Virus record (IMG/VR): IMGVR_UViG_3300025102_000017
Strand: one strand, 5' to 3'
DNA: 64,000 nt
Source of the DNA: an uncultured virus (IMG/VR IMGVR_UViG_3300025102_000017)
Lineage: Duplodnaviria; Heunggongvirae; Uroviricota; Caudoviricetes
A program made the translations under genes and the position numbers. Positions 1-64,000 of this stretch are shown here, piece by piece. The notes below the pieces were generated by a model that saw only the letters and a program-made list of their open reading frames with translations, was not told where the DNA came from and made no database searches. Numbering within the stretch: position 1 is the first letter of the stretch; every line of letters begins with the position of its first letter.

Positions 1-110
1 TTATTATTGAGTTGTGACCATTCTTTTTTAGATTGACCATGAACATATCCGGCAGTTCTGCCTTCTGCCCATCTACCACCAACAACCAATAATGTATCAG
101 AGATCGCCAA
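1..110 (-). CDS. N-terminal part (runs off the window) of a probable degenerate SGNH-like paralog
   Basis: Manual translation from TTG at 110 with upstream GAGGGA: MAISDTLLVVGGRWAEGRTAGYVHGQSKKEWSQLNN. It resembles the LLTLGCSWMEG N-termini of neighbouring paralogs but lacks the Ser. Confidence 0.4.
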   Translation of the reverse strand, partial: MAISDTLLVVGGRWAEGRTAGYVHGQSKKEWSQLNN

Positions 111-366
111 ATTTATCCCTCATGTCCTCACGTTGTTTTTTGAGGGAGTCAAGTGCACCATCAAGAAACCCTCTACGATATTCCCAAGTATCACCACCTG
201 ATTTACCTCTAGATGCATTGATGCATTTGCCGTAGTCTGGATCATCTGTTTGAATATTATTACAGACTAAACCAGCGAGATCTATATCTTTACCCGGTTT
301 ACCAGTACCCTGCCAGTAGAGTTGACCCTCCATCCAGGTAGCACCACATTTCTCACATTTTCTCAT
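97..366 (-). CDS. Small Cys-rich hypothetical phage protein (putative Zn-binding)
   Basis: 89 aa ORF with CEKC and two further Cys; late-promoter motif at 391-397 upstream. Confidence 0.7.
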   Translation of the reverse strand: MRKCEKCGATWMEGQLYWQGTGKPGKDIDLAGLVCNNIQTDDPDYGKCINASRGKSGGDTWEYRRGFLDGALDSLKKQREDMRDKFGDL

Positions 367-390
367 GGGGAGAACAGCAGTTGATCGAAT

Positions 391-397
391 TATTTAG
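391..397 (-). promoter_or_regulatory. T4-like late promoter (CTAAATA)
   Basis: Plus-strand tatttag in the intergenic gap, 25 nt before the ATG at 366. Confidence 0.55.
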
Positions 398-400
398 ATT

Positions 401-1036
401 CTAGCAATCAAAGTCCGTGTGTGCAATAATATACTCAGCAATAGTCTTATGCTGCAGTGCATTTGGATGACCTTGACCTGGTGTCTGGATAATCTTCAGG
501 ATATCCTTATAGATGCAATGCATCGTAGAGTCATCCATTAGGTTACGCCAATAACCAAGATCTGCTAGTGGATCGCAATCATTGAACAGTACAATGTAAG
601 GAACATTGTGTACCTTAGCAAACTGTTCAAATAACAATAAGTTCTTATACAGATTCTCCCCACCATGTGTCTTATTCCACACCCAACGGTAGTAGGAAGA
701 CATTGCTAGGGAGTGTGGGACTTTCTTCTTGTTACCAGAGCGAAAGTTGAAGTTAGAGTTATCTTGACGGAAGCGATAGGGGCAGAATAGATGTGGACCA
801 TCTTCTGCATAGTATTCAATGCGGGTAGGCACTGTGAGTTGCAAGACCGTAGGTTGAACACCATTAGTCTTGATCTCATGCAGTGCCCTATTTACGATGA
901 AGTCATTAGATGCACCACATTGGGATAGATCTGTAACTTCAGTCTTATAATGTTTAGAGACATGATGGATGAATCGCTCAGTCAGGCGATTCCTCAGTTC
1001 ATCACCCCATGTATAAGAACAACCCGCAAAGATCAT
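401..1036 (-). CDS. SGNH/GDSL-like hydrolase or acyltransferase
   Basis: GCSYTWG (block I), GASN (block II) and C-terminal GHPNALQH. Confidence 0.7.
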   Translation of the reverse strand: MIFAGCSYTWGDELRNRLTERFIHHVSKHYKTEVTDLSQCGASNDFIVNRALHEIKTNGVQPTVLQLTVPTRIEYYAEDGPHLFCPYRFRQDNSNFNFRSGNKKKVPHSLAMSSYYRWVWNKTHGGENLYKNLLLFEQFAKVHNVPYIVLFNDCDPLADLGYWRNLMDDSTMHCIYKDILKIIQTPGQGHPNALQHKTIAEYIIAHTDFDC

Positions 1037-1461
1037 GCCGAAAGATCAATCATTTTCTGTATGTATGTCCTAGCTTTCTGTAAGTCTGAGAGACGAGATT
1101 CGCCCACTTTCTTACCTGCTCGACTGACATATTTTACCACATTTCCAGCAAAGAAGTCAAGACCTTGATCTGCAACAAAGTCCCATACTTCAATCTTACC
1201 GGTATTGTAGTGCTCGGGATGACTGTAATTAGCACTCTTGGGTTGAGGACGCTTTTCAGGAATACTCATATCAAATGAAATAACATCTGCACCCTCAGCA
1301 CCGAAGATTATTCCATCCATAGGAACAGGTTGTGCTGCACCAAATGACTCACCTGTACCAATAGTGATGGAGTCAGTTACTTTTTCTTCTTTCATCTTGT
1401 TTCTTGAAGTTACGAAATCAAGAGGTAGTCCAAACTCATCGTCTGCGTGAATTTCGGCCAT
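1033..1461 (-). CDS. DUF3310-family protein with N-terminal extension
   Basis: C-terminal HPEHYNTGKIEVWDF...FFAGNVVKYVSRAGKK...DLQKARTYI is the typical DUF3310 pattern. Confidence 0.75.
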   Translation of the reverse strand: MAEIHADDEFGLPLDFVTSRNKMKEEKVTDSITIGTGESFGAAQPVPMDGIIFGAEGADVISFDMSIPEKRPQPKSANYSHPEHYNTGKIEVWDFVADQGLDFFAGNVVKYVSRAGKKVGESRLSDLQKARTYIQKMIDLSA

Positions 1462-1468
1462 AAGAATG

Positions 1469-2275
1469 TTATACTCCCTTATAGTTAGTATAACAGTTAT
1501 TCACTGCTGCGTCAAGGATGTCAGCGATTTGCTTATGTCCCTCTAGAGTTGGATGGAAGGAGTATGGGTTGACTATCTTCCTCTTTTTCAGATGTGAAAT
1601 ACGATCACAGTCTGCTTTCCAGTCAGAAAAGTGATACTTATCATCCTTTGGATTCCATCCATTATGATATGCCAATTGACTTAGTAAGTCATTATTGCAA
1701 GGATAAGGTAGTTTCACAAAGTTTCGGAAAGCATCTTTTTTGCGCCAATCAATTCCAGGGTAATTCAACGTATGAAACCATAGTTGAGGAACACCAAGCA
1801 ACTCAAAATAGTGCCGCCAATGACATATTTCACGGATCATGTGGTTTAGTTGAACTTTTTCATCAAAGTGTTGACGAAAGTATTCTTTTGGTCCAACCCA
1901 ATCAGGACCATGTAAGTTTGCTTTTGATCTTTGTGTTGGTTGAAATGACGAAAACCCTTTCGAGTGATTGAAAAACAACTCCATTCTGTAGATAGAAGTT
2001 ATTCCCCACAGGACAATAGTATCATCTAAAGTATTTTTCCGTAAGTATGTTAGCACTCTACGGAACATCGAACCATTAGATGCACCACCCTTACCCAGAT
2101 TGACATTTTCAAAACCATACTTCTTTGAGAGAATAGTTCTGAAAGAGTATTTTGCCATCAACTCTCGGTTATGTGAAACATCGCTATACAATTGGGATGT
2201 CTTATGAACGTTCGGAACGTACATAGCCCCGACACCTTCCATCCAACTGCACCCCAAAGTCAGTAACTTAGTCAT
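1469..2275 (-). CDS. SGNH-like protein, tandem paralog 1
   Basis: LLTLGCSWMEG, GGASN, VLWGITSIYR and NPYSFHPTLEGH. Confidence 0.75.
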   Translation of the reverse strand: MTKLLTLGCSWMEGVGAMYVPNVHKTSQLYSDVSHNRELMAKYSFRTILSKKYGFENVNLGKGGASNGSMFRRVLTYLRKNTLDDTIVLWGITSIYRMELFFNHSKGFSSFQPTQRSKANLHGPDWVGPKEYFRQHFDEKVQLNHMIREICHWRHYFELLGVPQLWFHTLNYPGIDWRKKDAFRNFVKLPYPCNNDLLSQLAYHNGWNPKDDKYHFSDWKADCDRISHLKKRKIVNPYSFHPTLEGHKQIADILDAAVNNCYTNYKGV

Positions 2276-3143
2276 CGTAATTACTCACTTGGTATGATTT
2301 ATGCCACAAAGTTTTGTATAAACTGGGATTTGGGTTGTTACTTTTGTGTCTATTATAATACTTTTCAAAGATTGGGTCAAGGATCTCCGCAATTTGCTCA
2401 TGACCCTGGCGTGTTGGGTGGAAAGAGTATGGATTTACAACTCCCTTTTGCTCTAATAGTTTTATTCTATCACAATCTGCTCTCCAATCTGAAGAATGAT
2501 ACTTGTCATCTACTGGATCCCACCCATTCTTGTATGCTAATTGACTAAGTAAATCCTTATTGCAAGGGTAGGGCATCTCACAAAATGGTTTATGGAGTGA
2601 GTGTCCTCTGTATTCTGCGTAAGTTATAGTATTCAAAGTGTCAAACCACATCTGTTCACAACCTGCTAACTCAAAATGTTTCTGCCAATGGCAAATATCT
2701 GATGTCAACAGGGATATTGCCATCTCCTCATCAAAGTGTAAATTGAAATGTTCCTTAGGACCGCACCAATTGCTGCGACCAGTCTTACGTAAATCTACTT
2801 TTTGGTTAGGTTGGAACGAATGATGTTTCTTAGTATCGGTAAAATACATTTCATCACGATAGATTGACGTGATTCCCCACATGACAATAGTGTCATTCAG
2901 GTCATTAGCAAGCAAATACCTCTTTAGTTTACGTGCTTGAGAGTTATTTGCTGCTCCACCTGCACTAATATCAACATGATCTAGTTTATATTTCTTGCAC
3001 AACAACGTCGTAAAAGAATATTTGCGTTGTTCGTTGTCAAAACTAAACTTACGATACTCATCTCTTGTGTATTTTTTGGTGTTGTCGTAGGAAGCACCGA
3101 TTCCCTTTACCCAACTACACCCTAATGTTAGCAATCTCGTCAT
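2268..3143 (-). CDS. SGNH-like protein, tandem paralog 2
   Basis: LLTLGCSWVKG, GGAANN and NPYSFHPTRQGH; C-terminal half closely similar to 1469..2275. Confidence 0.75.
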   Translation of the reverse strand: MTRLLTLGCSWVKGIGASYDNTKKYTRDEYRKFSFDNEQRKYSFTTLLCKKYKLDHVDISAGGAANNSQARKLKRYLLANDLNDTIVMWGITSIYRDEMYFTDTKKHHSFQPNQKVDLRKTGRSNWCGPKEHFNLHFDEEMAISLLTSDICHWQKHFELAGCEQMWFDTLNTITYAEYRGHSLHKPFCEMPYPCNKDLLSQLAYKNGWDPVDDKYHSSDWRADCDRIKLLEQKGVVNPYSFHPTRQGHEQIAEILDPIFEKYYNRHKSNNPNPSLYKTLWHKSYQVSNYDD

Positions 3144-3903
3144 AAATTTTGTCAGCGAACCAGGCGTGGCAGGATTTTGTTGGATGATATGAGTATGGAT
3201 TTAGATCACCTTGCTTTACGAGGTAGGGAACTCTGCTGGAATCGCTGTCAGCGAACTGTGAAACGTGATATCCGTCTGCTTTAGGAGCATAACCACGGTC
3301 TGCACATCTCAATGATAGTAAATCCCGCTGAGGTTTGTCATCAAAAAGCATATTAGGACTCTTATAGTCATAATTGTGGTGGTTGAAAGTATCCAACCAG
3401 TAGTTTTTGATCCCAGCAAGAGCAAAAAACTTGTCCCAGAACCTTATTTGTTGCGATAAGAGGATAACTTTTTGCTCATGATTGTAGTGATGGGTTATAT
3501 GTTCCTTGACATTGAATTGTGCACGCTCTTTCATAGCGTCTTTACCCCATCCATTACCAAATAGAACGTTTACATAGTCCTGTTTTGAGTTATACCACAC
3601 TTCTGTGCGTGGTGTAACTGTCAATGCCCATATGACAGTGGTATTTTGACACTTCTGTTTCGACAAATCTCCAAAATATTTCGTCGCCATACGGAATTGC
3701 CTCTCATTTGAGGATCCCATTACCGCAAAATTCTTATTTTCCATCCCCCAACGTTCAGCAAGGATGCTTCTCCATGCATATTCTCTGGATACTTCTTTAT
3801 CGGTCATCTTACCGCTCTTGCGATAATCTATTTCAGTCATCCCTTCTTCGTAATGGAGACCAACTCCAAACGTCCAAGAGCATCCAAAGGTAACTAGCGT
3901 CAT
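3115..3903 (-). CDS. SGNH-like protein, tandem paralog 3
   Basis: LVTFGCSWTFG, GSSN and NPYSYHPTKSCH. Confidence 0.75.
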   Translation of the reverse strand: MTLVTFGCSWTFGVGLHYEEGMTEIDYRKSGKMTDKEVSREYAWRSILAERWGMENKNFAVMGSSNERQFRMATKYFGDLSKQKCQNTTVIWALTVTPRTEVWYNSKQDYVNVLFGNGWGKDAMKERAQFNVKEHITHHYNHEQKVILLSQQIRFWDKFFALAGIKNYWLDTFNHHNYDYKSPNMLFDDKPQRDLLSLRCADRGYAPKADGYHVSQFADSDSSRVPYLVKQGDLNPYSYHPTKSCHAWFADKIYDEIANIRV

Positions 3904-3945
3904 TCTGTGATATAACGAGGAGGTAGTAATCGTGGTATCCTGCCG

Positions 3946-3952
3946 TATTTAT
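3946..3952 (-). promoter_or_regulatory. Late promoter (ATAAATA) for the SGNH operon
   Basis: Plus-strand tatttat in the 3904-4006 gap, upstream of the overlapping minus-strand SGNH genes. Confidence 0.55.
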
Positions 3953-4006
3953 CGCGACATAGTTTGGCGAATATGGTCAAAGTCATTACGGTGACTTGGT
4001 AGCACT

Positions 4007-4984
4007 CTATTTTCCCCATGAATCAGGCAACTCATCGAAAACAACCTTCCAATCCTTATAGAAGCGACCCATATACATTCCAGCAACGTTGATATCCTCT
4101 TCATCAAGGTCTTCAATGTCACTTGACCACTGATCTTTGAGGTAATCGTACTCAGGTGCATTACTTCCCATGTCTGGGACATAACAATTATGATGAATTT
4201 TGGTAATTTTGTAATTTAGGAAGTTAGAAAGACGCTCTAACTCTTCTTTTTCCTTATCTGGGTTCCAAAAATCTTCCATAACCATGGGATAAACGTTTTC
4301 TTTCCCAAATGCATCGCAAAATTTCAGGTAACCATCGGTATAATCGCAGTGATACGGCAAACGATCCTTTTTTAGGTTCCAGAAAAAGAGTTTTTTGTGC
4401 TTTTTTCTGGCAGCATAACGAGAAGCGACAAAATCGCCTCCAAATGCGTCCATAATTTCGAGTTCTCGCTGACAGACACTGCCAACTTCGGAAAAATAGC
4501 GCCGAACCGGGTCCCGGAACTGCATTGTGACCTTTACGTTGAAGTGATCACGAAGTTTTGGAGCAATTCCCAACAAAAATTCCCTGTCAAGACTAAAATT
4601 GGCGTTCGAGAAGTCGCAAACTGCCGCATATGTCTCTTTGACGTTTTCATAGTGACCTAAAAAGTATTCAATATACCCATCAATGTGTTTTGGAGTCTTT
4701 TGGAGAATCTCAGTTGACGTATTTTCGATAAAAAGGTTACTTCGGGACAAATATTTCCCAAAAGGATGCGTGGGTGGTCGTTTACCACCGTTGTATTGCG
4801 TACCTTCCCACAAGGTATCGAACATCCTCCAAGCGGATGGGGTATTTTGTTGCAAGCAGTTGAGGTACCAGTTCTCTTTCTTATGCCCCATGTGGGCATA
4901 CTGGTTCTCCATCGTCACTGTGTAATGAAATGGACTGGTAGCAGACCAACCTGTACCAGGGTTCAAAAGCAGAGTGGGCTTCAT
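4007..4984 (-). CDS. Sulfotransferase-like P-loop protein
   Basis: N-terminal GTGWSATS, HxxxKE, DFS and FRDPVRR (3'-PB-like R-D-P) motifs. Confidence 0.6.
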   Translation of the reverse strand: MKPTLLLNPGTGWSATSPFHYTVTMENQYAHMGHKKENWYLNCLQQNTPSAWRMFDTLWEGTQYNGGKRPPTHPFGKYLSRSNLFIENTSTEILQKTPKHIDGYIEYFLGHYENVKETYAAVCDFSNANFSLDREFLLGIAPKLRDHFNVKVTMQFRDPVRRYFSEVGSVCQRELEIMDAFGGDFVASRYAARKKHKKLFFWNLKKDRLPYHCDYTDGYLKFCDAFGKENVYPMVMEDFWNPDKEKEELERLSNFLNYKITKIHHNCYVPDMGSNAPEYDYLKDQWSSDIEDLDEEDINVAGMYMGRFYKDWKVVFDELPDSWGK

Positions 4985-10737: not shown

Positions 10738-11142
10738 GTGCCTCTTCAGAGAACATCGCTGCCATTCAAGGACATTTCACTGTCTTTCAAACGGCATCCA
10801 GTTACTAATGATATCATTCCTCTGAAGAATGAAGACGCTATCAAGCGATCTGTACAAAACCTGGTACGTATCCAACTAGGCGAAGTTTTCTTCAATAACC
10901 TACTGGGAACTAGGATTACGGGAGCTCTTTTTGAACTAGCGGACGGCGATTTTGTCGATCCAATCAAAACTGAGATTGAAACAACAATTACTAACTTTGA
11001 ACCTAGAGTGAAATTGACTCGGGTTGATGTTATTTCTGAACCAGACGCAAACAGTCTTGAGGTGACAATTTCTTACGATATTGTTGGACAAAACGCCCCA
11101 TCTCAAAGTGTATCATTCATCCTTGAACCTACTAGGCTATAA
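10738..11142 (+). CDS. gp25: Baseplate wedge subunit gp25
   Basis: FKDISLSFKRHPVTND, AIKRSVQNLV and ITNFEPRV; synteny with gp6. Confidence 0.9.
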   Translation: MPLQRTSLPFKDISLSFKRHPVTNDIIPLKNEDAIKRSVQNLVRIQLGEVFFNNLLGTRITGALFELADGDFVDPIKTEIETTITNFEPRVKLTRVDVISEPDANSLEVTISYDIVGQNAPSQSVSFILEPTRL

Positions 11143-13262
11143 TGGCACTAACACAATTTACAAATCTAAACTTTGAGGACATCAAGACCTCAATCAAAGA
11201 TTATCTGAGGGAGAACTCAAACTTCACAGATATGGACTTTGAGGGGTCTAACCTCTCAATGCTAATCAATCTGTTAGCGTATAATTCATATAGCACCGCC
11301 TACAACACCAATATGGCGGTGAATGAGACATTCATCGACTCCGCTACGCTGAGGGAAAATGTTGTATCTCTTGCTCGTAATATTGGTTATGTACCTCGCT
11401 CTGTCCGGGCGGCGCGTGCGGTCGTAGATATTTCTATTTCCCAACTTCCAAGTACCACTGAGACAGTCAGTATCTCTCCTGGAGTCATTGCTAACGGCAC
11501 TGTCTCTGATGTAAATTATATCTTCTCCGTACCAGAAACTGTTACCTTCCCTGCTAATGACACTGAGGCAGGTGCTTCGGTTGAAATTTTTCAAGGTCAA
11601 TATCTTGAAAACTCATTTACTGTAAACGACTCAATTCCTAATCAGCGATTTATTCTCCCTAATAATGGTATTGATACATCAACGATTACAGTAAAGGTAA
11701 GGAATAGTTCATCCGATAACACTGTAACTGAATACAGTCTAGTTGAAAGTATCATCGGTATTACTTCAACATCTAACATTTACCTGCTACAAGAAACTAC
11801 CGACGAGAAATATGAAATTCTTTTCGGTGACAATGTTTTCGGCAAAAAACTTCAGTCAGGTAATATAGTTACCGTTGGTTATATCAAGACCAATGGTAGG
11901 GCAGGAAATGGTGTTCGATTCTTCAATTTTGTCGGCACTCTAAAAGATCAGGATGGTTTGACTGAGAGTGGGTTTAGTGCCAATCTGTTTACTGACACAC
12001 CCTCTCAGAATGGCGACAGTATTGAGTCTTTGGAGAGTGTCAAGTATTATGCACCCCGCATGTATGCCGCCCAGAACCGCGCTGTGACGGCAAATGACTA
12101 TGAGGCAATCTTACCCTCCATTTATCCAAACATCGAGTCTGTGTCCGCCTACGGGGGTGAGGAGTTGAATCCTCCCCAGTATGGTCGAGTCTTCATTGCT
12201 GCTAAACCAAAGAATGGTTTCTTCTTGTCAGATTTGACAAAGAAGCAACTTCTAGTATCTCTGCGGGATTACTCAATCGCAGGTATTCTCCCATCCTTTG
12301 TAGATCTTAGTTTCCTGTTTGTTGAGATTGATACCTATGTCTACTACAACAGCAACTTTATTGGGGATGTTGATAATCTGAAGACAAACGTTATCAGTGC
12401 CTTGACCCTTTACGGTGGAGGGCGTGAAATCAATCGTTTCAGTGGTAGATTCAAGTACAGTGGCATCCAATCAACCATTGATGGTGTAGATACTTCTATT
12501 ACTTCCAATATTACTCTCGTCAGGATGCGTCGTAACCTGGTTGCAAAAATCAACCAGTTTGCACAATATGAAATTTGTTTCCTAAATCCTTTCTATTGCA
12601 ACAAAGGTTCTTACAATATCCAATCAACTGGATTCAACGTATCTGGTGTGGTGGGAACATGTTACTTCTCTGATAATAAGATTGATGAGACTCAAGGTGA
12701 TCTGTTCTTGTTCCAAATCCTTGATGACGACAGAGTTCAAGTAATCAACTCTAAATTCGGTCGTATTGATTATATGAAGGGTGAGGTTATTTTGGAGACA
12801 ATCAATATTACCTCTACCCTCGAACCCGACAATGTTATTGAAATTGAGGCAATTCCTCAGTCTAATGATATTCTTGCCAAGAATGAGATGTATCTCTCGT
12901 TTGATGTGGCAAAGAGTAATGTCTTCATGCGTGTAGACAGTATTGCAACAGGCAATAACAGTTCTGGTTCTAGGTTCATCTCACAATCTAGTTACTTCCC
13001 TGATAAGAGGGTTCGTGGAACCATTATAACTACTACTGCCGGTTCTACACTTATTGGTTATGTCAATGGTGAAAAATACTTTGGCGCATTCCACGTTATG
13101 GCGGATGGGACTAAGATGACCGGTTCTTCTCACAGTCCTAACAGTAAGTTGATTACGTCTACCCCCATCGTGACTACTAAAACAGTTACGAGTGTGTCAG
13201 CTACTACATCATCCACTACATCATCAAGTTCATATTCAGCACCACAATCTAGCGGATACTAA
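11142..13262 (+). CDS. gp6: Baseplate wedge subunit gp6 with C-terminal extension
   Basis: DFEGSNLS, DSATLRENVVSLARNIGY and QNRAVTANDY. Confidence 0.9.
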   Translation: MALTQFTNLNFEDIKTSIKDYLRENSNFTDMDFEGSNLSMLINLLAYNSYSTAYNTNMAVNETFIDSATLRENVVSLARNIGYVPRSVRAARAVVDISISQLPSTTETVSISPGVIANGTVSDVNYIFSVPETVTFPANDTEAGASVEIFQGQYLENSFTVNDSIPNQRFILPNNGIDTSTITVKVRNSSSDNTVTEYSLVESIIGITSTSNIYLLQETTDEKYEILFGDNVFGKKLQSGNIVTVGYIKTNGRAGNGVRFFNFVGTLKDQDGLTESGFSANLFTDTPSQNGDSIESLESVKYYAPRMYAAQNRAVTANDYEAILPSIYPNIESVSAYGGEELNPPQYGRVFIAAKPKNGFFLSDLTKKQLLVSLRDYSIAGILPSFVDLSFLFVEIDTYVYYNSNFIGDVDNLKTNVISALTLYGGGREINRFSGRFKYSGIQSTIDGVDTSITSNITLVRMRRNLVAKINQFAQYEICFLNPFYCNKGSYNIQSTGFNVSGVVGTCYFSDNKIDETQGDLFLFQILDDDRVQVINSKFGRIDYMKGEVILETINITSTLEPDNVIEIEAIPQSNDILAKNEMYLSFDVAKSNVFMRVDSIATGNNSSGSRFISQSSYFPDKRVRGTIITTTAGSTLIGYVNGEKYFGAFHVMADGTKMTGSSHSPNSKLITSTPIVTTKTVTSVSATTSSTTSSSSYSAPQSSGY

Positions 13263-13267
13263 TACAA

Positions 13268-25938: not shown

Positions 25939-25942
25939 TACG

Positions 25943-42296: not shown

Positions 42297-42315
42297 GAAA
42301 AAAAGTCTTGAATAA

Positions 42316-45999: not shown

Positions 46000-46008
46000 T
46001 TTCTACAG

Positions 46009-48331: not shown

Positions 48332-48338
48332 AGCGTCG

Positions 48339-48361
48339 CTAAATAAGCAATTTCATAAATA
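48339..48361 (+). promoter_or_regulatory. Tandem late promoters (CTAAATA and ATAAATA)
   Basis: Two motifs in the gp17-gp18 gap. Confidence 0.65.
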
Positions 48362-48395
48362 TCTCTAGTCATTGTAGGGACACTAGGGAGTTAGA

Positions 48396-50582: not shown

Positions 50583-50601
50583 TCAATAGGAGATCCAACT
50601 A

Positions 50602-51237
50602 ATGGCTTTAGATAGAAACATTTTTTCTATAAGAAATAATGAGAGAACGATTGATTCGTTCAAGTCACGCCTGGTGGGAGGTGGTGCTCGCCCCAACCTG
50701 TTTGAGGTTGAGTTGAACTTCCCTACGGGAGTTGGTATCTTTGATGAGGACATTGAAGATACCACATATCGGATGATGATCAAGGGAGCACAGCTCCCTG
50801 CTTCCAATATTCAGGAAGTTCTCGTTCCTTTCCGTGGGCGTCAATTGAAGGTTGCAGGAGATCGTCGTTTCGATCCTTGGACCATCACCGTCATCAACGA
50901 TGGTGACTTCAAACTCCGCGAAGCATTTGAGCGGTGGGCAAACTTCATCATCAAAGTATCAGACGGTTCTGGTACCATCAACCCCAGTGAGTATTACTCT
51001 GACTGGGTTGTCAACCAATTGGGTCGTGCAAGCACTGACATCAACATTGAGGGTAAAGATAACCCAGCACAACTTCCTGTTCTTCGCCGCTATGCGATGA
51101 AGGGTTGTTGGCCTTCTTCTGTGGGTGGTATTGAACTGTCCTACGATCAAGCAGATACTGTTGAAGAATTCCAGGTGACCCTCCAAGTTCAGTGGTGGGC
51201 TGCTTACGATTCTAATAATGGTCCTTCTGTGGTCTGA
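50602..51237 (+). CDS. gp19: Tail tube protein gp19
   Basis: GGARPNLFEV, FRGRQLKVAGDRRFDPW and EEFQVT. Confidence 0.95.
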   Translation: MALDRNIFSIRNNERTIDSFKSRLVGGGARPNLFEVELNFPTGVGIFDEDIEDTTYRMMIKGAQLPASNIQEVLVPFRGRQLKVAGDRRFDPWTITVINDGDFKLREAFERWANFIIKVSDGSGTINPSEYYSDWVVNQLGRASTDINIEGKDNPAQLPVLRRYAMKGCWPSSVGGIELSYDQADTVEEFQVTLQVQWWAAYDSNNGPSVV

Positions 51238-51243
51238 TAAATA
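51237..51243 (+). promoter_or_regulatory. Late promoter (ATAAATA)
   Basis: Upstream of gp20. Confidence 0.6.
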
Positions 51244-51270
51244 TATTGACAAGACCCCGAACCTAATATT

Positions 51271-52929
51271 ATGACCAAACTTTTTGGTTTTTCAATTGAT
51301 GATGAATCAAAAAAGTCGAAAGGTGTAATCAGCCCTGTCGCTCCTAACAAGGAGGATGGTGCTGATTATTACCTTTCTTCGGGTTTCTATGGGCAGTACG
51401 TTGATATCGAAGGTGTCTTCAGGACCGAGTTCGATATCATCAAACGCTATAGGGACATGTCCCTTCACCCTGAATGTGACACTGCTGTAGAGCATGTGGT
51501 CAATGAGGCAATTGTCTCTGACCTGAACGATTCTCCTGTCGAGATTGATCTCGATAATCTCCAGGTGGGTCAATCACTCAAGAATGTTATTCGTGATGAA
51601 TTCAAGATGGTGAAAGACCTTCTTGAATTTGATAAGAAGTCGCACGAGATCTTCCGCAACTGGTATGTGGACGGGCGACTGTACTACCATAAGGTTATCG
51701 ACGTACAGAAACCTGACGAAGGTATCAAAGAAGTCCGTTATATCGACGCCCTCAAGATCAAACTGATGAGGGTCAAACCCAATGACAAGGGTAAGGGTGT
51801 GCCTGACATGCCTATGCCTGACAACTCCGCAACCAACGTCAACAAAGACACTAAGGTTCAGGAATTTTACACCTACTACCCGCAGGGTATTGCACAGAAG
51901 TATGGTTCTGTTGCTGGCAAGGGTGTGCGAATTGCTAAGGATTCCATCTGTCACATCACCTCTGGTCTGGTAGACCGTAACAAAAAACTCACCCTCTCTT
52001 ACCTCCATAAGGCAATCAAGGGTCTGAACCAACTGAGAATGATTGAGGACTCCCTCGTCATCTATCGTCTTTCCCGTGCACCTGAGCGTCGTATTTTCTA
52101 CATCGACGTTGGCAACCTGCCAAAGGTCAAGGCAGAGCAGTATCTGCGTGACGTTATGAGTCGTTACCGGAACAAGTTGGTGTATGACGCCAACACCGGT
52201 GAGATCAAAGATGATAAGAAGTTCATGTCCATGCTGGAAGACTTCTGGCTTCCTCGTCGTGAGGGTGGTCGTGGAACTGAGATCTCTACACTGCCTGGTG
52301 GACAGAACCTGGGCGAACTGAGTGACATTGAATACTTCCAGAAGAAACTGTATCGTTCACTGAACGTTCCTGAGTCCCGCATTGGTGGTGACAGTGGTTT
52401 CAACATGGGTCGTTCTAGTGAGATCCTTCGTGACGAACTGATGTTCAGTAAGTTCGTGGGTCGTCTCCGTAAGCGTTTCTCTGCATTGTTCCTTGATCTT
52501 CTGAAGACTCAGTTGATCCTGAAGAACATCGTGACTCCCGAAGACTGGGATAAGATGTCAGAGCACATCCAGTTCGACTACCTTTATGACAACCACTTCG
52601 CTGAACTGAAGGAAACAGAACTGATGAATGAGCGTTTGAACCTGATGGTCCAGGTCGAACCTTACATCGGTACTTACTACTCCCGTGACTATGTGAAGCG
52701 TAAGATTCTCCGTCAGAGTGACGAAGAGATTCTGGAAATGGAACAGGAGATGGATGAAGAGAATGCCGAAGGCACCGGAGTCCCGCTAGAAACTCAAAAT
52801 ATGATCATGCAAGGTCAGATTGAGAACGGTCAAATTGGCACAAATAAGGATGGATCGATGGGTAAAGTGCCTGAGGATCCTGAGCAAATGCAGGCTCCCA
52901 CTCTAAATATCAAGAAGGCCAAGATATAA
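51271..52929 (+). CDS. gp20: Portal protein gp20
   Basis: RAPERRIFYIDVGNLPK and EDFWLPRREGGRGTEI. Confidence 0.97.
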   Translation: MTKLFGFSIDDESKKSKGVISPVAPNKEDGADYYLSSGFYGQYVDIEGVFRTEFDIIKRYRDMSLHPECDTAVEHVVNEAIVSDLNDSPVEIDLDNLQVGQSLKNVIRDEFKMVKDLLEFDKKSHEIFRNWYVDGRLYYHKVIDVQKPDEGIKEVRYIDALKIKLMRVKPNDKGKGVPDMPMPDNSATNVNKDTKVQEFYTYYPQGIAQKYGSVAGKGVRIAKDSICHITSGLVDRNKKLTLSYLHKAIKGLNQLRMIEDSLVIYRLSRAPERRIFYIDVGNLPKVKAEQYLRDVMSRYRNKLVYDANTGEIKDDKKFMSMLEDFWLPRREGGRGTEISTLPGGQNLGELSDIEYFQKKLYRSLNVPESRIGGDSGFNMGRSSEILRDELMFSKFVGRLRKRFSALFLDLLKTQLILKNIVTPEDWDKMSEHIQFDYLYDNHFAELKETELMNERLNLMVQVEPYIGTYYSRDYVKRKILRQSDEEILEMEQEMDEENAEGTGVPLETQNMIMQGQIENGQIGTNKDGSMGKVPEDPEQMQAPTLNIKKAKI

Positions 52930-52932
52930 ATA
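52925..52932 (+). promoter_or_regulatory. Late promoter, exact T4 consensus TATAAATA
   Basis: Upstream of 52957. Confidence 0.7.
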
Positions 52933-52956
52933 ACCTTTAGCGTTTCTACTATTGTA

Positions 52957-53175
52957 ATGGATACTGATCAACTTTTGGACATGATGGGTTCTAACGAATC
53001 CACTCCTAGCGAAATTCATGATGCAATCAAAACTTTGTTGCATCAGAAAGCTGCAGAGAGAGTGTCCGAGGTAACCCCCGCTGTGGCATCAGGTGTTTTT
53101 GGCGATACCTCTGGTGATATCCCTGGTGATGAAGTGGAAACGACTACTGACGAAACCGAAGAGGAGTCTGAGTGA
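52957..53175 (+). CDS. Small acidic prohead core protein (gp67-like position)
   Basis: 72 aa with an acidic tail, directly after the portal gene. Confidence 0.6.
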   Translation: MDTDQLLDMMGSNESTPSEIHDAIKTLLHQKAAERVSEVTPAVASGVFGDTSGDIPGDEVETTTDETEEESE

Positions 53176-53732
53176 TGCAAGCACTGAAACTTGTAGCTGA
53201 CCATGGTGAACTTTCAAGTAATGATGCAACTACTGTTGCCTCCAGTGCTTTTTCAGTGAAAACTGGTCTGCTCTATTTGGCATGTAGTTCTGAGAAAAAG
53301 AGTGGTCACGTTGCTGTATGCAACACTATTGCTCAGGCAGGTGTGGGTTCATTCCATGTTGAGAAAGGAAATGGTTTCCTTTATCGATATGGTCATCCGG
53401 CGAACGCTAAGATTGTTAGCGTCGAAAAAGGTTCATCTACAGTTTTGACTGTTGATTTCCCCGACACCAAAATCCAAGTCGGTGATTTTATTACTATGAG
53501 TGGCAGTGCTGTGAGTGGATACAACACCACTTTGGCACATGTTGAGGTAACTGCTGTTTCTGATCCTCAGGTCAAAAACAACTACCAAAAAACTATCACA
53601 GTTGATGCCGATACTGCTTCCCTTGCGGACTTTACTGGCACTGCTGAAGTTGCTAAATCAGTCATTGTAAGACTGGCAGCAGAAACTGGTGATGGTTGCA
53701 CGATACATGTACACGAGGTCAACCTAGGATGA
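53172..53732 (+). CDS. Hypothetical virion protein
   Basis: 186 aa, beta-rich; coupled between the gp67-like gene and gp21. Confidence 0.65.
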   Translation: MMQALKLVADHGELSSNDATTVASSAFSVKTGLLYLACSSEKKSGHVAVCNTIAQAGVGSFHVEKGNGFLYRYGHPANAKIVSVEKGSSTVLTVDFPDTKIQVGDFITMSGSAVSGYNTTLAHVEVTAVSDPQVKNNYQKTITVDADTASLADFTGTAEVAKSVIVRLAAETGDGCTIHVHEVNLG

Positions 53733-54376
53733 AACTAATTTCCGAAGAAATTGAATCAGTAGATATTCTTACCGAAGAAAAAGACGGTAAGAAGACTCTC
53801 TACATCCAAGGTCCCTTCCTCCAAGCAGAGGTTGTGAATCGTAATAAGCGTTGCTATCCTCTTGCGACTATGGTCAATGAGGTGTCTCGCTATAACGAGT
53901 CCTTCACCTCTAAGGGTCGTGCCCTTGGTGAACTGGGTCATCCTGACGGACCCCAGATCAATCTGGATCGTGTATCCCATAAGATTGTCTCTCTCACTCA
54001 AGAAGGCAATAACTTTGTTGGCAAAGCTCAAATTCTTTCAACCCCCATGGGGAAGATTGCTGAGTCCTTGATTAGCGAAGGGGTCAAACTCGGCGTGTCT
54101 TCTCGTGGAATGGGTTCTATCACTCAACGCGATGGAGTCAATTATGTCGGGGAAGATTTCATGCTCGCTACAGCTGCTGATATTGTTGCTGATCCATCTG
54201 CCCCTGATGCTTTTGTAGATGGGATTATGGAAGGAAAAGAGTGGGTCTGGGAAGGCGGTGTACTCCGTGAAAAAGCCTGCAGGGCAATTGAAGAGAGTAT
54301 AAATACCGCTGTAGATGAAGGAGTTCTTGAGGCACACAAGTTGCGCCTATTTTCTCAATTCCTTTCAAATCTATAA
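53729..54376 (+). CDS. gp21: Prohead protease gp21
   Basis: ALGELGHP, LGVSSRGMGS and DIVADPSAPDAFV; start at ATG 53729. Confidence 0.95.
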   Translation: MKLISEEIESVDILTEEKDGKKTLYIQGPFLQAEVVNRNKRCYPLATMVNEVSRYNESFTSKGRALGELGHPDGPQINLDRVSHKIVSLTQEGNNFVGKAQILSTPMGKIAESLISEGVKLGVSSRGMGSITQRDGVNYVGEDFMLATAADIVADPSAPDAFVDGIMEGKEWVWEGGVLREKACRAIEESINTAVDEGVLEAHKLRLFSQFLSNL

Positions 54377-54380
54377 AACT

Positions 54381-54387
54381 CTAAATA
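54381..54387 (+). promoter_or_regulatory. Late promoter (CTAAATA)
   Basis: Upstream of gp22-gp23. Confidence 0.65.
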
Positions 54388-54423
54388 ATAACAGTAATAA
54401 CTAGGACTTACGGAAGCTAACCG

Positions 54424-55512
54424 ATGGCTGAAGCGAAACAAACACTAGATGAAATGGAGAACCAGGTTACTAAAGGTGCGTCTAAAGCGGAACCTATGCC
54501 TAAGGCTCCCAACTACGTGCCGGACAACGCCTCGATCGAAGATCTTGGTGGACCTACTCCTACTAACTCCAGACCAGAAGACGACAGCAATAAGCTGAAG
54601 ACTCCTGGTGCCTCTTTTGCACAAGCAGGCGACCCCCATTTTGGGCGTAAAGGTGCCGCTGGCAAAGTACAACTCCCTGGACCTGCTGCTCTGAAGAGCA
54701 CCGGTTACGGTGAAGAGGTTGAATCTGAAGAAGAGGTGGTTGCTGAAGCCCCCGCTACCGAAGAGGAAGTTGTTGCTGAAGAAGAGCAGACGAACGAAAT
54801 CGTCATCGACGTTGCCGATGATGTCGCCGCTCTCCTCGAAGGCGAAGAACTCTCTGCCGAGTTCCAAGAAAAGACCGCTACGATCTTTGAAGCTGCAGTT
54901 CGCAGCAAGATCGATCAAGTGGCAAGCACTCTGGAAACTCAGTTCGCTGAAGCATTCGATCAAGAGATCGCTAGCTTCAAGACTGAAATGACCGAGCGTG
55001 TTGATTCATACCTAGAGTTCGTTGCAAACGAATGGATCAACGAAAATGCGTTGCAGGTCGAGACAGGAATCCGAGGTGAACTTTCGGAGTCCTTTATGTC
55101 GGGTCTCAAGACCCTTTTTGAAGAACATTATGTTGAAATCCCTGAAGATAAATATGATGTCTTGGAAGCAATGACTTCCAAGCTTGATGAAATGGAGACA
55201 AAACTCAATGAACAGATCGACAGCAACGTCGCATTGACTAAGCGACTGTCGGCATCTGTTTCTGACAACATCCTCGATGAAGTAAGTGAAGGTCTGGCAC
55301 TGTCCCAAAAAGACAAGCTCTCGGAACTCTCTAAAGGTGTTGAGTTTGAAAGTGAAGAACAGTACCGGGAAAAGCTCGCCACCCTGAAGGAGTCGTACTT
55401 TGCTGCGAAGCCTGTGGTCGAGTCCCAAGAAGTTAGCAGCGAGGAGAGCCTGGTCGAAGATCATTCTCCGGCGATGAGTGCTTATCTCAACGCTCTGACT
55501 AAGTTCCAATAG
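54424..55512 (+). CDS. gp22: Prohead scaffold protein gp22
   Basis: EDLGGPTP, ATIFEAAV, VDSYLE and LKESYF; acidic coiled coil. Confidence 0.92.
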   Translation: MAEAKQTLDEMENQVTKGASKAEPMPKAPNYVPDNASIEDLGGPTPTNSRPEDDSNKLKTPGASFAQAGDPHFGRKGAAGKVQLPGPAALKSTGYGEEVESEEEVVAEAPATEEEVVAEEEQTNEIVIDVADDVAALLEGEELSAEFQEKTATIFEAAVRSKIDQVASTLETQFAEAFDQEIASFKTEMTERVDSYLEFVANEWINENALQVETGIRGELSESFMSGLKTLFEEHYVEIPEDKYDVLEAMTSKLDEMETKLNEQIDSNVALTKRLSASVSDNILDEVSEGLALSQKDKLSELSKGVEFESEEQYREKLATLKESYFAAKPVVESQEVSSEESLVEDHSPAMSAYLNALTKFQ

Positions 55513-55544
55513 TATAAAAACACCCAACCAATTAGGTAAACCCA

Positions 55545-56951
55545 ATGTTCAATTCTGGATCCCTCCAGAAGAAGTGGGCACCCCTGCTGGAGGCCGAAGG
55601 ACTTGATGCTATCAAGGACAACCACCGCAAGGCAGTAACCGCTCAACTTCTCGAAAACCAAGAACGTTTTCTCCGTGAAGAGCGTGCATTCCTGAGTGAA
55701 GCACCTCCGACCGTAAACACTGACCCCTCTTCTGCTGGCACCGCCGGTTTTAGTGGTGGCGCAGCCGCTGCTGGTCCTGTTGCAGGTTTCGACCCTGTGC
55801 TGATCAGCCTGATCCGTCGCTCCATGCCCAACCTGGTCGCTTATGACCTCGCTGGTGTGCAGCCGATGTCCGGTCCTACCGGTCTGATCTTCGCAATGCG
55901 CTCCCGCTATGACAACCAGTCTGGCACCGAGGCATTCTTCAACGAGCCCGATTCGGCGTTCTCCGCTCAGAACTCCAACGCATCACTGGATCAAGGTGAT
56001 TACACTGGAGCTACTGACGGCGGCACTTCTGTCGGTTTCGGTACAACCGCCCAAGGCGGCAGCAACCCCTCCATCCTGAATGGTGGTGCTAACAACGACT
56101 ACTCCGTTGGACAAGGTTTCAACACCCAAGCTTCTGAAGCTCTGGGCGATGGTGCCTCGAACGACTTCCGTGAGATGGCGTTCAGCATCGAGAAAGTCTC
56201 GGTGACCGCCAAGTCACGTGCCCTGAAGGCAGAGTACAGCCTTGAGCTTGCTCAGGACCTGAAGGCGATCCACGGTCTGGATGCTGAAGCGGAACTCGCT
56301 AACATCCTCAGCACTGAGATTCTTGCTGAGATCAACCGCGAGATCATCCGTACCATCTACAAGTCTGCTGAAGCAGGTGCTCAAACCAACACTGCCACCA
56401 CTGGCGTGTTCGACCTTGACACCGACAGCAACGGTCGTTGGATGGTTGAGAAGTTCAAAGGTATGATCTTCCAACTGGAGCGTGATGCTAACGCCATCGC
56501 TCAAAGGACTCGTCGCGGGAAGGGTAACATCATCCTTTGCTCCGCTGATGTTGCTTCCGCTCTGACCGCCGCTGGTCAACTGGACTACACCCCCGCCCTG
56601 TCATCCAACATGAACGTTGATGACACCGGCAACACCTTCGCTGGTACCCTCAACGGTCGCTATCGCGTCTACATTGACCCGTTTGCTGCTAACCTGAGTG
56701 CAGATCAGTATTACGTGATGGGCTACAAGGGTTCTAACCCTTATGACGCCGGTCTGTTCTACTGCCCTTACGTGCCCCTGCAAATGGTTCGCGCCGTTGG
56801 TCAGGACACCTTCCAGCCGAAAATCGGTTTCAAGACTCGCTACGGCATGGTTGCAAACCCCTATGCAGAAGGTACTACCCAAGGTCTGGGTCGTATCACT
56901 GCTGGTTCCAACCGCTACTACCGTCGCGTCAAGGTCCAAAACCTCATGTGA
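55545..56951 (+). CDS. gp23: Major capsid protein gp23
   Basis: GVQPMSGPTGLIFAMR, KSRALKAEYS.ELAQDLKAIHGLDAE and FQPKIGFKTRYG. Confidence 0.98.
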   Translation: MFNSGSLQKKWAPLLEAEGLDAIKDNHRKAVTAQLLENQERFLREERAFLSEAPPTVNTDPSSAGTAGFSGGAAAAGPVAGFDPVLISLIRRSMPNLVAYDLAGVQPMSGPTGLIFAMRSRYDNQSGTEAFFNEPDSAFSAQNSNASLDQGDYTGATDGGTSVGFGTTAQGGSNPSILNGGANNDYSVGQGFNTQASEALGDGASNDFREMAFSIEKVSVTAKSRALKAEYSLELAQDLKAIHGLDAEAELANILSTEILAEINREIIRTIYKSAEAGAQTNTATTGVFDLDTDSNGRWMVEKFKGMIFQLERDANAIAQRTRRGKGNIILCSADVASALTAAGQLDYTPALSSNMNVDDTGNTFAGTLNGRYRVYIDPFAANLSADQYYVMGYKGSNPYDAGLFYCPYVPLQMVRAVGQDTFQPKIGFKTRYGMVANPYAEGTTQGLGRITAGSNRYYRRVKVQNLM

Positions 56952-61448: not shown

Positions 61449-61636
61449 ATCATCCCATCACGGTTGAAGACTACATGGATTTTGGTGAAGAGTTCTTTGC
61501 CAAGTATAACTATGTAAGAGACCGCATCCCTGATGCCTCTACTGAAGACATTCTCACTGTAATGGAAACCTTGGGCAAACTTGTAGTCCAAGGCAGAGAA
61601 GATTACTACGATCAACGACGCCGAACCCGGAGATGA
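61445..61636 (+). CDS. Hypothetical protein
   Basis: ATGA-coupled ORF in the gp55-gp47 operon. Confidence 0.65.
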   Translation: MNHPITVEDYMDFGEEFFAKYNYVRDRIPDASTEDILTVMETLGKLVVQGREDYYDQRRRTRR

Positions 61637-61890
61637 AAGTGAACATCCTTTTTGAAAAGTGTGAAAAAGAGAAGGCACAAGACACCGGTCTTCCTTATAC
61701 CGCCTATCTGGTGACATACAAAGTTGATGGTGTTGAAACATATGACATCGCTACTTGTGGAAAGACAGTAGATCTCTTTGATCATTATTACGATACCTAT
61801 AAAGAAAACTTTATTAGGTTTGATCAAGCAGAAGGCAGGGTCAGTCCCAAACTATACGGTTATCAATCACCTGAGTCCAAGAAAAAGTAA
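61633..61890 (+). CDS. Hypothetical protein
   Basis: Coupled ORF; LPYTAYLV.Y and DLFDHYYD.Y motifs. Confidence 0.7.
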   Translation: MKVNILFEKCEKEKAQDTGLPYTAYLVTYKVDGVETYDIATCGKTVDLFDHYYDTYKENFIRFDQAEGRVSPKLYGYQSPESKKK

Positions 61891-62522
61891 TGGCATTTCT
61901 AGTTCATAATCTACCACCGGTACCAGTCAAGGTCCGCAAGGAGTATTTGTATGACCTAGAACATGGTCATGGTGAGTTCACTGAGGGTATCTGGGTCAGT
62001 GTGAAGAGTGTCCAATATAAGGCACTCTACTTTGAGACATTGATTCCTGAGTATGGTGCTCTGTTTGACAAACTTCCTCTGAGTGCATTTGTGTGGAAAG
62101 AGGAGCATGATGATCTGCCCCTTGATACTCTGCAACTGTGGGATTGTTTTGATTACAATATTACAGTAATCGAGAAACCCATGCTGTCACGGTGTGAGTT
62201 CTTTGGTAAAGATAAGCAGATGCATGCTGGTGAGTACATGTTCACTATTGATACCTGTCATAGTGAATCTTCTACTCTAGACACTGGGTTTAGTCAAGAT
62301 GATCCTGAGCATAAATCATTCAATATTATCAAACTGGACAACGGACAGTTTGCTGCACAACCCAACAACCGGGTGATCTGGAAAGACATGAGTCTTATCC
62401 CAGAAGAAACCAAGATGCCAGACTTCAAAGTCTGCACTCAAAATTACCGAGTTGAAAATAGTGATAAGTGGAGTGTTGGTCATTCAGAAGAATGGATGTA
62501 CACAACGCAAGACGGCGCATGA
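61890..62522 (+). CDS. Conserved hypothetical protein
   Basis: VRKEYLYD, LQLWDCF, EHKSFN and NGQFAAQPNNR. Confidence 0.7.
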   Translation: MAFLVHNLPPVPVKVRKEYLYDLEHGHGEFTEGIWVSVKSVQYKALYFETLIPEYGALFDKLPLSAFVWKEEHDDLPLDTLQLWDCFDYNITVIEKPMLSRCEFFGKDKQMHAGEYMFTIDTCHSESSTLDTGFSQDDPEHKSFNIIKLDNGQFAAQPNNRVIWKDMSLIPEETKMPDFKVCTQNYRVENSDKWSVGHSEEWMYTTQDGA

Positions 62523-63559
62523 AAGTTGCAATCATCACTGACCAGCACTTTGGTTTCAAGAAGGGGTCAAAGGTCTACCACGATTACTTCCTCAAATTCT
62601 ATGAGGAAACTTTCTTCCCTATGCTTGAGAGGGAAGGAATAAAAACTATTCTCGATTTAGGAGATACCTTTGACAACCGTAAAGGTGTTGATCTCTATTC
62701 TCTGGACTGGGCGAAGACACATTATTTCGACCGTCTTCGATCTATGGGGATATCTATTGTTTCTGTTGTGGGCAACCATACCGCCTTCTACAAGAACACT
62801 AATGACATCAATACTATCGATCTACTCCTACGAGAGTACGATAACGTTCGTATTGTTGGCGAGTGTGAAGAGATAGATGTTTGTGGTCTTCCTATCTTAT
62901 TCATCCCATGGATCAATCAAGAGAACCGGGATGCCACATACAAGAAGATCAAAGAAACTAAAGCAAAGGTTGCCATGGGGCACCTGGAACTGAATGGTTT
63001 TGTTGCCACTCATGGTCATGTCATGGAGCATGGTCATGACATTGATGTGTATCAGAAGTTTGACAAAGTATTATCTGGACACTTCCACACTCGTTCTACG
63101 AACGGTAAGATCTATTACATCGGCAATCCCTATGAGATGTTCTGGAGTGATGTGAATGACCCACGTGGATGTATCACGTTTGATACTGAAACGTTGGAGA
63201 TGAAGAATATTGATAACCCCAATCAACTCTATAAAGTAATCAAATATCAGGATACACCTCGTCAACTCTTCAAGTTCAATGAGTATAGAGGGAACATTGT
63301 AAAGGTAGTTGTATTCAAAAAGACTAACGAGAAAGAGTTTGATCGTTTCATGGAGTCCCTGGCAAAGGCAAACCCCATTGAGATCAAAGTGGTGGAGCGA
63401 TCAGATGTCATGTATCTTGACTATGACTTTGCTGAACAGACGGAAGATACAATGACCCTGCTCAACAAATACGTCGATGATTTAGAGACAAATCTAAATA
63501 AATCTAAGATCAAAAATATCTTGACAGAGGCGTACCAACTAGCATGTGAGGGAATCTGA
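62519..63559 (+). CDS. gp47: Recombination nuclease gp47 (Mre11/SbcD-like)
   Basis: TDQHFG, LGDTFD, GNH and SGHFH phosphoesterase motifs; start at ATG 62519. Confidence 0.95.
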   Translation: MKVAIITDQHFGFKKGSKVYHDYFLKFYEETFFPMLEREGIKTILDLGDTFDNRKGVDLYSLDWAKTHYFDRLRSMGISIVSVVGNHTAFYKNTNDINTIDLLLREYDNVRIVGECEEIDVCGLPILFIPWINQENRDATYKKIKETKAKVAMGHLELNGFVATHGHVMEHGHDIDVYQKFDKVLSGHFHTRSTNGKIYYIGNPYEMFWSDVNDPRGCITFDTETLEMKNIDNPNQLYKVIKYQDTPRQLFKFNEYRGNIVKVVVFKKTNEKEFDRFMESLAKANPIEIKVVERSDVMYLDYDFAEQTEDTMTLLNKYVDDLETNLNKSKIKNILTEAYQLACEGI

Positions 63560-63816
63560 TGCATATAATCACCCCCGTACAGGAGAAACGAGAAGGTGCA
63601 TATGCCGTCGTAGACGAGTCGGGTGAAAAGGTTGTGTTCTTCTTCGCTGAACGCGACGATGCCGAAAGGTATGTTATGATGTTAGAATGTAATGGTCAGA
63701 CCTCCGAAATGGAAGTCGTGGACATTCCAGACAAGGCAGCGATTGCTGCTTGTGAACGAACGGGTACTAAGTACACCATCATCACTAAGAATGAACTTGT
63801 TATTCCTGTTGAATGA
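63559..63816 (+). CDS. DUF3110-like small protein
   Basis: VFFFAERDDAERYVMMLE motif. Confidence 0.5.
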   Translation: MHIITPVQEKREGAYAVVDESGEKVVFFFAERDDAERYVMMLECNGQTSEMEVVDIPDKAAIAACERTGTKYTIITKNELVIPVE

Positions 63817-64000
63817 TTCTTTTCAAAGAAATTCGTTATAAAAATTTTCTATCAGCAGGGAACCAGTTCACGGTAATCCCATTAGATGCCAACAAAGACA
63901 CGCTCATTGTTGGATCAAATGGTGCTGGCAAGAGTACGATTCTTGATGCTCTCACCTTCTCTCTGTTTGGGAAACCTTTTCGTAAGGTCAACAAATCTCA
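63813..64000 (+). CDS. gp46: Recombination ATPase gp46 (Rad50/SbcC-like), N-terminal part
   Basis: MILFKEIRYKNFLSAGN...GSNGAGKSTILDAL Walker A; truncated by the window end. Confidence 0.92.
   Translation, partial: MILFKEIRYKNFLSAGNQFTVIPLDANKDTLIVGSNGAGKSTILDALTFSLFGKPFRKVNKS

Follow-up and report, generated by a model that had tools for sequence, protein, structure and literature searches.

Complete absence of TTAA from a clade of marine T4-like cyanomyoviruses and a phage-borne orphan nuclease as its candidate cause

The record IMGVR_UViG_3300025102_000017 is a stretch of uncultured virus DNA of 64,000 nucleotides, here termed the window. It falls within a Kyanoviridae-like clade of marine T4-like cyanomyoviruses from whose genomes the tetramer TTAA is missing. 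Phages of the window's own population carry a gene for a small PD-(D/E)XK nuclease. In related phages this is the first gene of a cassette with a beta-class N6-adenine methylase, in the layout of a type II restriction-modification system, and every TTAA-free genome examined has either a catalytically dead methylase or none. On balance, we favour the explanation that the zero TTAA count reflects self-immunity to this phage-borne orphan restriction nuclease, attained through complete loss of its sites.

Results

TTAA is absent from the window and is removed by synonymous recoding

An exact search of both strands revealed no TTAA in the 64,000 bases. This bears out the first-pass annotation, a reading of the letters that had described the word as wholly absent and had expected several hundred copies at an AT content of about 55–60%. 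The G+C content is 43.8%, and the expected number is 399 from base composition and 190 from a second-order Markov model. Dinucleotide-preserving shuffles (n = 100) gave 286 ± 13 copies with a maximum of 316, resampling from the codon usage of the window (n = 200) gave 281 ± 13, and shuffles of synonymous codons within genes (n = 300) gave 268 ± 12 with a minimum of 227. The zero set against this last null indicates selection, not codon usage, and firmly supports what the earlier reading had proposed on this point. The other AT palindromes, which it had called common, are near expectation (AATT 301 versus 330, ATAT 314 versus 327, TATA 225 versus 246). TTAA is a short palindrome that falls far below the composition, Markov and codon nulls alike, the pattern of restriction-site avoidance.

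The avoidance extends to all three reading phases. Although 30% of codons start with A, no such codon comes after any of the 144 TTA codons, and none of the 25 TAA stops is directly preceded by T. Codons of the form xTT account for 42% (1973/4706) of Phe, Leu, Ile and Val codons before other residues, but occur in none of the 615 pairs in which one of these four residues precedes Lys or Asn, confirming that pairs able to form TTAA are written with other codons. At 56 aligned TTAA sites in orthologues from the relatives G003 and G004, the window keeps the identical amino-acid pair at 35. The replacements at such sites vary (ATT to ATC, TTT to TTC, GTT to GTA or GTC, and TTA to CTG, CTC or CTA), and therefore do not reflect a single systematic miscall. 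These results show that TTAA has been removed from the structural module (10738..56951) by synonymous recoding and that purifying selection, mostly at synonymous positions, maintains its absence.

The window contains 4,162 words that are one substitution away from TTAA and, given in addition the divergence of the clade described below, TTAA would be expected to have arisen at many places had it been tolerated. The first 10 kb of the window is present in near-identical form (at least 0.9 of sampled words) in eight sequencing runs from seven studies, with no RNA datasets listed among the runs containing it, and the first 20 kb is covered by contigs of four runs with few differences. None of the 40 listed population differences (of 60 in the four runs) creates TTAA; since 2.3% of possible substitutions would do so, only ~0.9 is expected by chance and this comparison has no power.

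The absence is shared by a clade of relatives

Word counts in related phages revealed that zero TTAA is a clade-wide trait, persisting across relatives that are 64–87% identical in nucleotides. Of 80 viral contigs gathered through their portal protein, 11 lack TTAA. In a portal tree of 84 rows, computed with a quick IQ-TREE run in which L017 was left out as part of G002, the zero-TTAA rows (the window, G002 and the portal contigs) form a single clade of 12 with a Shimodaira–Hasegawa-like approximate likelihood ratio test (SH-aLRT) support of 98 and G+C contents of 43–50%. The sister clade in this tree exhibits observed-to-expected ratios (O/E) for TTAA of 0.2–0.4, and values of 0.06 to 1.1 are found in other clades of cyanomyoviruses. 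The complete genome G011 (192,351 bp), which is syntenic with the window at 77–87% nucleotide identity and has a portal protein 92% identical, contains 0 TTAA versus 693 expected. The same is true of G002 (112 kb; 0 versus 321), which is 64–80% identical to the window in nucleotides, and of G001 (0 versus 128).

A candidate orphan nuclease in the population of the window

Leftward extension of the window contig by exact 42-mers among viral contigs matched only G001. A metagenome scan with an alignment of the nuclease identified contig L231, which matches window positions 1..4618 over its positions 12858–17475 at 99.8% identity and also matches the left flank taken from G001. On its plus strand, L231 encodes a 176-residue PD-(D/E)XK nuclease (L231:6948-7478), which places the gene 5,380–5,910 bases beyond the left end of the window and hence outside it. 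Given the 99.8% identity, the window's own population therefore carries the nuclease gene. No methylase gene lies behind it, and the 17.5 kb of L231 contain 0 TTAA versus 59 expected. In L231 the nuclease is encoded by a free-standing gene with small early genes around it; in relatives this gene is coupled to methylases. In G002, a nuclease open reading frame (ORF) of 176 residues is followed by a PF01555 methylase; homologues of this ORF are lacking from two relatives that contain TTAA.

The AlphaFold model of the nuclease (predicted local distance difference test (pLDDT) 90, predicted template modelling score 0.82) matches I-Ssp6803I with a Z score of 11.3 (root-mean-square deviation 2.5 over 113 residues), followed by NhoI (10.0), Hjc (8.3), PvuII (7.0) and EcoRV (6.2). 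Residues D73, E82 and K84 do not vary among 50 sequences down to 27% identity, so that the predicted structure and the alignment together exhibit the fold and the conserved catalytic D...ExK of type II enzymes. We assign the protein on this model to the PD-(D/E)XK nucleases with a restriction-enzyme fold. It is also predicted to form a symmetric homodimer, with a model score of 0.63 compared to 0.00 for the best control, at least 76% of contacts shared between runs and a partner pLDDT of at least 85; 20 of 30 solved homodimers attain the 0.63 mark, as does 1 of 23 single chains.

The state of the methylase tracks TTAA

At all 21 loci with a nuclease at least 74% identical (14 distinct gene sequences), TTAA is zero and the methylase is either 207 residues long or lacking. 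At all 11 loci of the 58–61% nuclease group, a full-length methylase adjoins the nuclease and TTAA is present. In the 207-residue form, the catalytic DPPY is replaced by EPPP or EPPS, the loop after this motif is shortened and 36 residues that include the HPTxK region have been deleted, so that the enzyme is dead. An adjacent active methylase was not found in the TTAA-free phages, as none lies by the nuclease in L231, none of the cassette family is present in the complete G011 and the copy in G002-type phages is dead, whereas an intact adjacent methylase occurs only in related phages, namely G012, G013 and the 11 loci.

Similar states were observed in cultured phages. The complete genome of S-ShM2 (179,563 bases; host Synechococcus WH8102) carries the nuclease without a methylase of this family and contains 0 TTAA versus 586 expected, and because its nuclease falls into a different subgroup (32% identity), it is a second, independent instance. 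In the complete genome of S-BM3, an intact methylase lies 80 kb from the nuclease, and TTAA occurs 76 times versus 552 expected. G012 has two methylases adjacent to its nuclease and 217 copies versus 462, and G013 has one adjacent methylase and 283 copies versus 450. Eight words of four, five or six letters are missing from all four methylase-less carriers, and of these TTAA alone occurs in each of the three carriers that have a methylase (76, 217 and 283 copies).

The genome of G012 (behind L202) contains a 13-kb block around the cassette, at about 7.5–20.5 kb, with 1 TTAA versus 78 expected, compared to 216 versus 385 outside it. This block consists of small, presumably early genes, and AGCT is also scarce inside it (2 versus 20; outside, 25 versus 86).

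The correlation between nuclease and TTAA was also sought across the whole nuclease family, where it fails for distant members; the informative signal is confined to the closer subfamilies and to the state of the methylase. The cultured phage S-SSM4 (NC_020875; loci L340–L349) encodes a distant nuclease-family member, CYXG_00024, and a distant PF01555-type methylase; it lacks CCGG (0 versus 133), TTTAAA (0 versus 54) and AGTACT (0 versus 50) and may be a parallel case with another specificity. The ACG-2014f isolates US44 (L317 24919-25455) and C90 (L318 24381-27844) have flanks that are 98–99% identical and differ in one island. The island of US44 contains a weak nuclease homologue, and a distant beta-class methylase lies at 136 kb of that genome; the island of C90 contains a 201-residue ORF, a 394-residue DNA methyltransferase and a helicase, and C90 has no such distant beta-class methylase.

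Other depleted words

Two further features of the window were overlooked by the first-pass annotation. RGCY is depleted (GGCC 9 versus 64, GGCT 27 versus 130, AGCC 18 versus 71, AGCT 40 versus 144), and five palindromic 6-mers are at zero (AGTACT 0 versus 9.6, GACGTC 0 versus 9.6, TTCGAA 0 versus 10.3, GTCGAC 0 versus 6.9, CTCGAG 0 versus 4.6). GTAC, TGCA and CATG are also among the depleted words. Depletion of RGCY was observed in every cyanomyovirus examined, with an O/E of 0.07–0.45 in G002, G011, G003 and G004, and in none of 20 host-family genome samples. In a pool of 610 kb from the clade, the only words under an O/E of 0.05 are TTAA (0 versus 1,927) and nine palindromic 6-mers; no non-palindromic word falls under this threshold.

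Other lineages have lost other words. G004 (behind L053; 122,669 bases) contains no CCGG (0 versus 35), CGCG (0 versus 20) or GCGC (0 versus 37), and S-BM3 contains no CCGG (0 versus 92). G004 also lacks ACTAGT (0 versus 13) and has two intact PF01555 methylases at 52.6–54.4 kb, with no nuclease of the present family detected.

Hosts and literature

The complete relative G011 carries psbA and psbD, and the hosts are therefore picocyanobacteria. Assignment of the host through a phage ferredoxin was uninformative, as the matches were scattered over all cyanobacteria. TTAA is present at an O/E of 0.87–1.9 (0.5–15 sites per kb) in all 20 sampled host-family genomes, none of which exhibits avoidance of TTAA, AGCT, GGCC, GCGC or CCGG. 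A profile of the nuclease matched none of 401 picocyanobacterial-family genomes, in a search that covered this nuclease family only and not unrelated TTAA enzymes. A study of cyanophage resistance (PMC6708340) describes restriction-modification as uncommon in cyanophage hosts and host DNA as being degraded during phage DNA replication. The full-text literature searched (including the accessible text of PMC12707154 and PMC6286503), in which few subscription journals were covered, yielded no description of cyanophage genomes that lack TTAA or of a phage that escapes its own nuclease through the loss of sites.

Gene content of the window

The window is T4-like cyanomyovirus DNA with 59 greedy ORFs and is about 98% coding. 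In the portal comparison, the top match (82%) was an uncultured single-virus genome, and cultured phages reached at most about 70%. The structural module on the plus strand extends from baseplate gp25 to the major capsid protein gp23 (10738..56951), and the annotated genes comprise gp25, gp6, gp8, neck, sheath and sheath stabiliser, tube, terminase, portal, prohead protease, scaffold and major capsid. Further annotated genes are UvsY, UvsW, gp55 (late sigma factor) and gp47, the last being a homologue of a nuclease subunit at 62468-63559.

An island of tailoring enzymes (401-10470) adjoins the baseplate genes and contains two DUF6071 paralogues, several unannotated paralogous ORFs, a Nol-like carbamoyltransferase, a glycosyltransferase-like protein and a radical S-adenosylmethionine protein without a homologue in G003 or G004. 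Two giant structural ORFs on the plus strand lie in the baseplate region, at 13268-21511 (2,747 residues) and 25943-33079 (2,378 residues), and both are kept at 53–69% identity in G002 and G003. A plus-strand ORF of 226 residues with no family match (46009-46689) is inserted between gp16 (small terminase) and gp17 (large terminase). It was considered as a nuclease candidate and rejected, being found in two of four zero-TTAA loci that cover the site and in none of 17 others, and not being conserved in G002, where a different 413-residue ORF with a DUF6321 end occupies the gp16/gp17 site.

Discussion

The evidence leans, if modestly, towards a variant of virus-encoded restriction-modification whose methylase became unnecessary. 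The nuclease would cut TTAA, a specificity that we infer from the way in which the word tracks the state of the methylase. Once all sites had been removed, the methylase would have become dispensable and decayed, and any new TTAA would thereafter be suicidal, giving the all-or-none pattern. The nuclease would then be free to shred unmethylated DNA that bears TTAA, namely the host chromosome and probably co-infecting rival phages, and self would be told apart from non-self by the absence of sites and not by methylation. The first-pass annotation had offered two mechanisms, a phage-borne nuclease with purging of its sites and a host system directed at TTAA. The former is favoured by the orphan nuclease and by a methylase that is dead or lost exactly where TTAA is zero, with cleavage at TTAA itself as the conjectural step; the latter is less favoured, given host-family genomes that neither avoid TTAA (20 sampled) nor contain the nuclease (0/401).

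Several observations weigh against the orphan-nuclease explanation. G003 (102 TTAA versus 508, O/E 0.20) and G004 (175 versus 606, O/E 0.29) are depleted and no nuclease was found in either contig, so some pressure on TTAA exists without a phage's own nuclease. S-BM3 has an O/E of 0.14 despite its intact methylase. The partial contigs G014 (37 versus 277), G015 (77 versus 225) and G016 (11 versus 186) exhibit an O/E of 0.06–0.34 and encode nucleases 35–38% identical with no methylase detected, and they fit only if a methylase sits on the unsequenced part, at a distance as in S-BM3. The nuclease subgroups follow phage phylogeny, and the correlation with methylase state rests on few independent events (the window clade, the S-ShM2 lineage and perhaps L213/L256 and L255). 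The family is not uniformly linked to TTAA, since US44 of ACG-2014f has a member and 141 TTAA versus 184, and S-SSM4 lacks TCGA (0 versus 330) with no depletion of TTAA. The nuclease has no named relatives (no match in Pfam, PHROGs or NCBIfam, and 297 database homologues without an informative name), and its best fold match, I-Ssp6803I, is a homing endonuclease. Finally, nine palindromic 6-mers (TTCGAA, GACGTC, GTCGAC, CTCGAG, AGCGCT, TGCGCA, GGCGCC, CCCGGG and ACGCGT) do not occur in the pooled 610 kb of the clade, where 16–78 copies are expected, and one nuclease cannot explain them. Together with the depletion of RGCY and the words gone from other lineages, they indicate that several restriction-type nucleases, of hosts or of other phages, act on cyanomyoviruses.

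A TTAA-specific, MseI-like system of the host could kill phages that retain the site, with the phage cassette incidental and of another specificity or a homing role. We consider this unlikely, though the reading stays live because nine other palindromes were erased without a known phage nuclease. A broad, lineage-specific purge limited to palindromes (TTAA and the nine 6-mers) is the signature of type IIP enzymes, other words have been purged in other lineages (CCGG, CGCG and GCGC in G004, TCGA in S-SSM4 and CCGG in S-BM3), and both the depletion in G003 and G004 and the homing-endonuclease match would be in keeping with it. However, avoidance of TTAA, AGCT, GGCC, GCGC and CCGG is lacking in all 20 sampled host-family genomes, and host restriction leaves unexplained why inactivation or loss of the methylase is confined to genomes without TTAA, why TTAA alone tracks its state and why the TTAA-poor block of G012 is centred on the cassette. 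Alternatively, the cassettes of co-infecting cyanophages could be the main selective agent, with TTAA-free lineages later gaining or keeping the nuclease without the methylase as a free weapon. Such a history would account for the graded depletion across cyanomyovirus clades (O/E 0.06–0.8 in 69 of 80 portal loci), which includes the seemingly nuclease-free G003 and G004, and it suits a cassette that is common and mobile, as in the variable island of the ACG-2014f isolates and in methylases that are linked or unlinked, as well as the absence of the nuclease from the host-family genomes searched. Still, we judge it quite improbable: exclusion during co-infection is purely hypothetical, the premise that the nuclease cuts TTAA is shared with the orphan-nuclease explanation, from which this one is computationally inseparable, and most depleted contigs are fragments in which absence of the nuclease is unproven.

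An artefact, be it systematic error in sequencing or assembly (as might occur at a modified base) or a sequence that is synthetic or recoded, was suggested only by the unusual exact zero, and no support for it was found. It has a negligible chance of being correct, as the first 10 kb recur nearly identically across the eight runs and the first 20 kb in four, the zero recurs in independent contigs 64–87% identical and in the cultured S-ShM2, and the replacements are varied synonymous changes that include multi-base ones (TTA to CTG).

Comparison with known systems places the orphan-nuclease explanation in context. GATC is reportedly completely absent from Staphylococcus phage K. In restriction-site avoidance of virulent phages, surveyed by Rusinov et al. 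2018 (PMC6286503), whose accessible text has no mention of cyanophages or TTAA, a palindromic restriction-type word is likewise purged from a large lytic phage genome through synonymous changes, to exactly zero, with several sites affected per genome; the enzyme in those cases is the host's, whereas in the window clade the candidate enzyme is phage-borne and the hosts exhibit neither avoidance (20 sampled) nor the nuclease (401 searched). I-Ssp6803I, NhoI, PvuII and EcoRV share the fold and the D...ExK core with the phage nuclease, but sequence identity is just 10–17% and the enzymes do not share a recognition sequence. I-Ssp6803I acts in homing and has a long target, whereas the phage nuclease is free-standing in the window's population and coupled to a methylase in relatives. 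MseI cuts T^TAA and its methylase is an N6-adenine enzyme; the MseI system would have the same recognition word as the phage nuclease and shares the methylase type with the phage cassettes.

Chloroviruses are lytic viruses of phototrophs that carry a small type II nuclease with its cognate methylase (for example the CviAII and CviJI pairs), presumably as a means of breaking down the DNA of the host. They protect their own genome by methylation, whereas in the window clade, with its methylase dead or deleted, protection would come from the absence of sites; G011, S-ShM2 and L231 have no functional methylase of the cassette family and no TTAA sites to methylate. The depleted words RGCY, GTAC, TGCA and CATG of the window are also chlorovirus enzyme sites, RGCY being that of CviJI. 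Phage T4 breaks down host DNA and shields its own by modified cytosine. The likeness lies in destroying host DNA while sparing the phage's own and in the downstream exonuclease gp46/47, of which the window has the gp47 homologue; the difference is that T4 discriminates by base modification and the window clade would do so by the absence of a 4-base word.

More broadly, and more doubtfully, cyanomyoviruses may fight with orphan restriction enzymes, erasing a 4-base word, discarding the methylase and leaving the nuclease on its own to destroy both the host chromosome and co-infecting phages that bear the word. The phage arsenal, and not host systems, would then account for the lineage-specific purges of palindromes, possible examples being TTAA in the window clade and S-ShM2, TCGA and CCGG in S-SSM4, and CCGG, CGCG and GCGC in G004. 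The orphan-nuclease idea is directly testable because the cultured S-ShM2 is in the same state, with zero TTAA, the nuclease and no methylase. TTAA-free genomes also bias digestion methods of the MseI type and k-mer models of phage DNA. If the orphan-nuclease explanation is true, a restriction-type system that tells self from non-self by a missing target and not by a mark would follow a logic of its own, and it would explain in concrete terms how T4-like cyanophages with unmodified DNA can break down the host's DNA and spare their own. Nuclease-mediated competition between phages would then shape the sequence of some of the ocean's most abundant viruses, in hosts reported to have few restriction systems.

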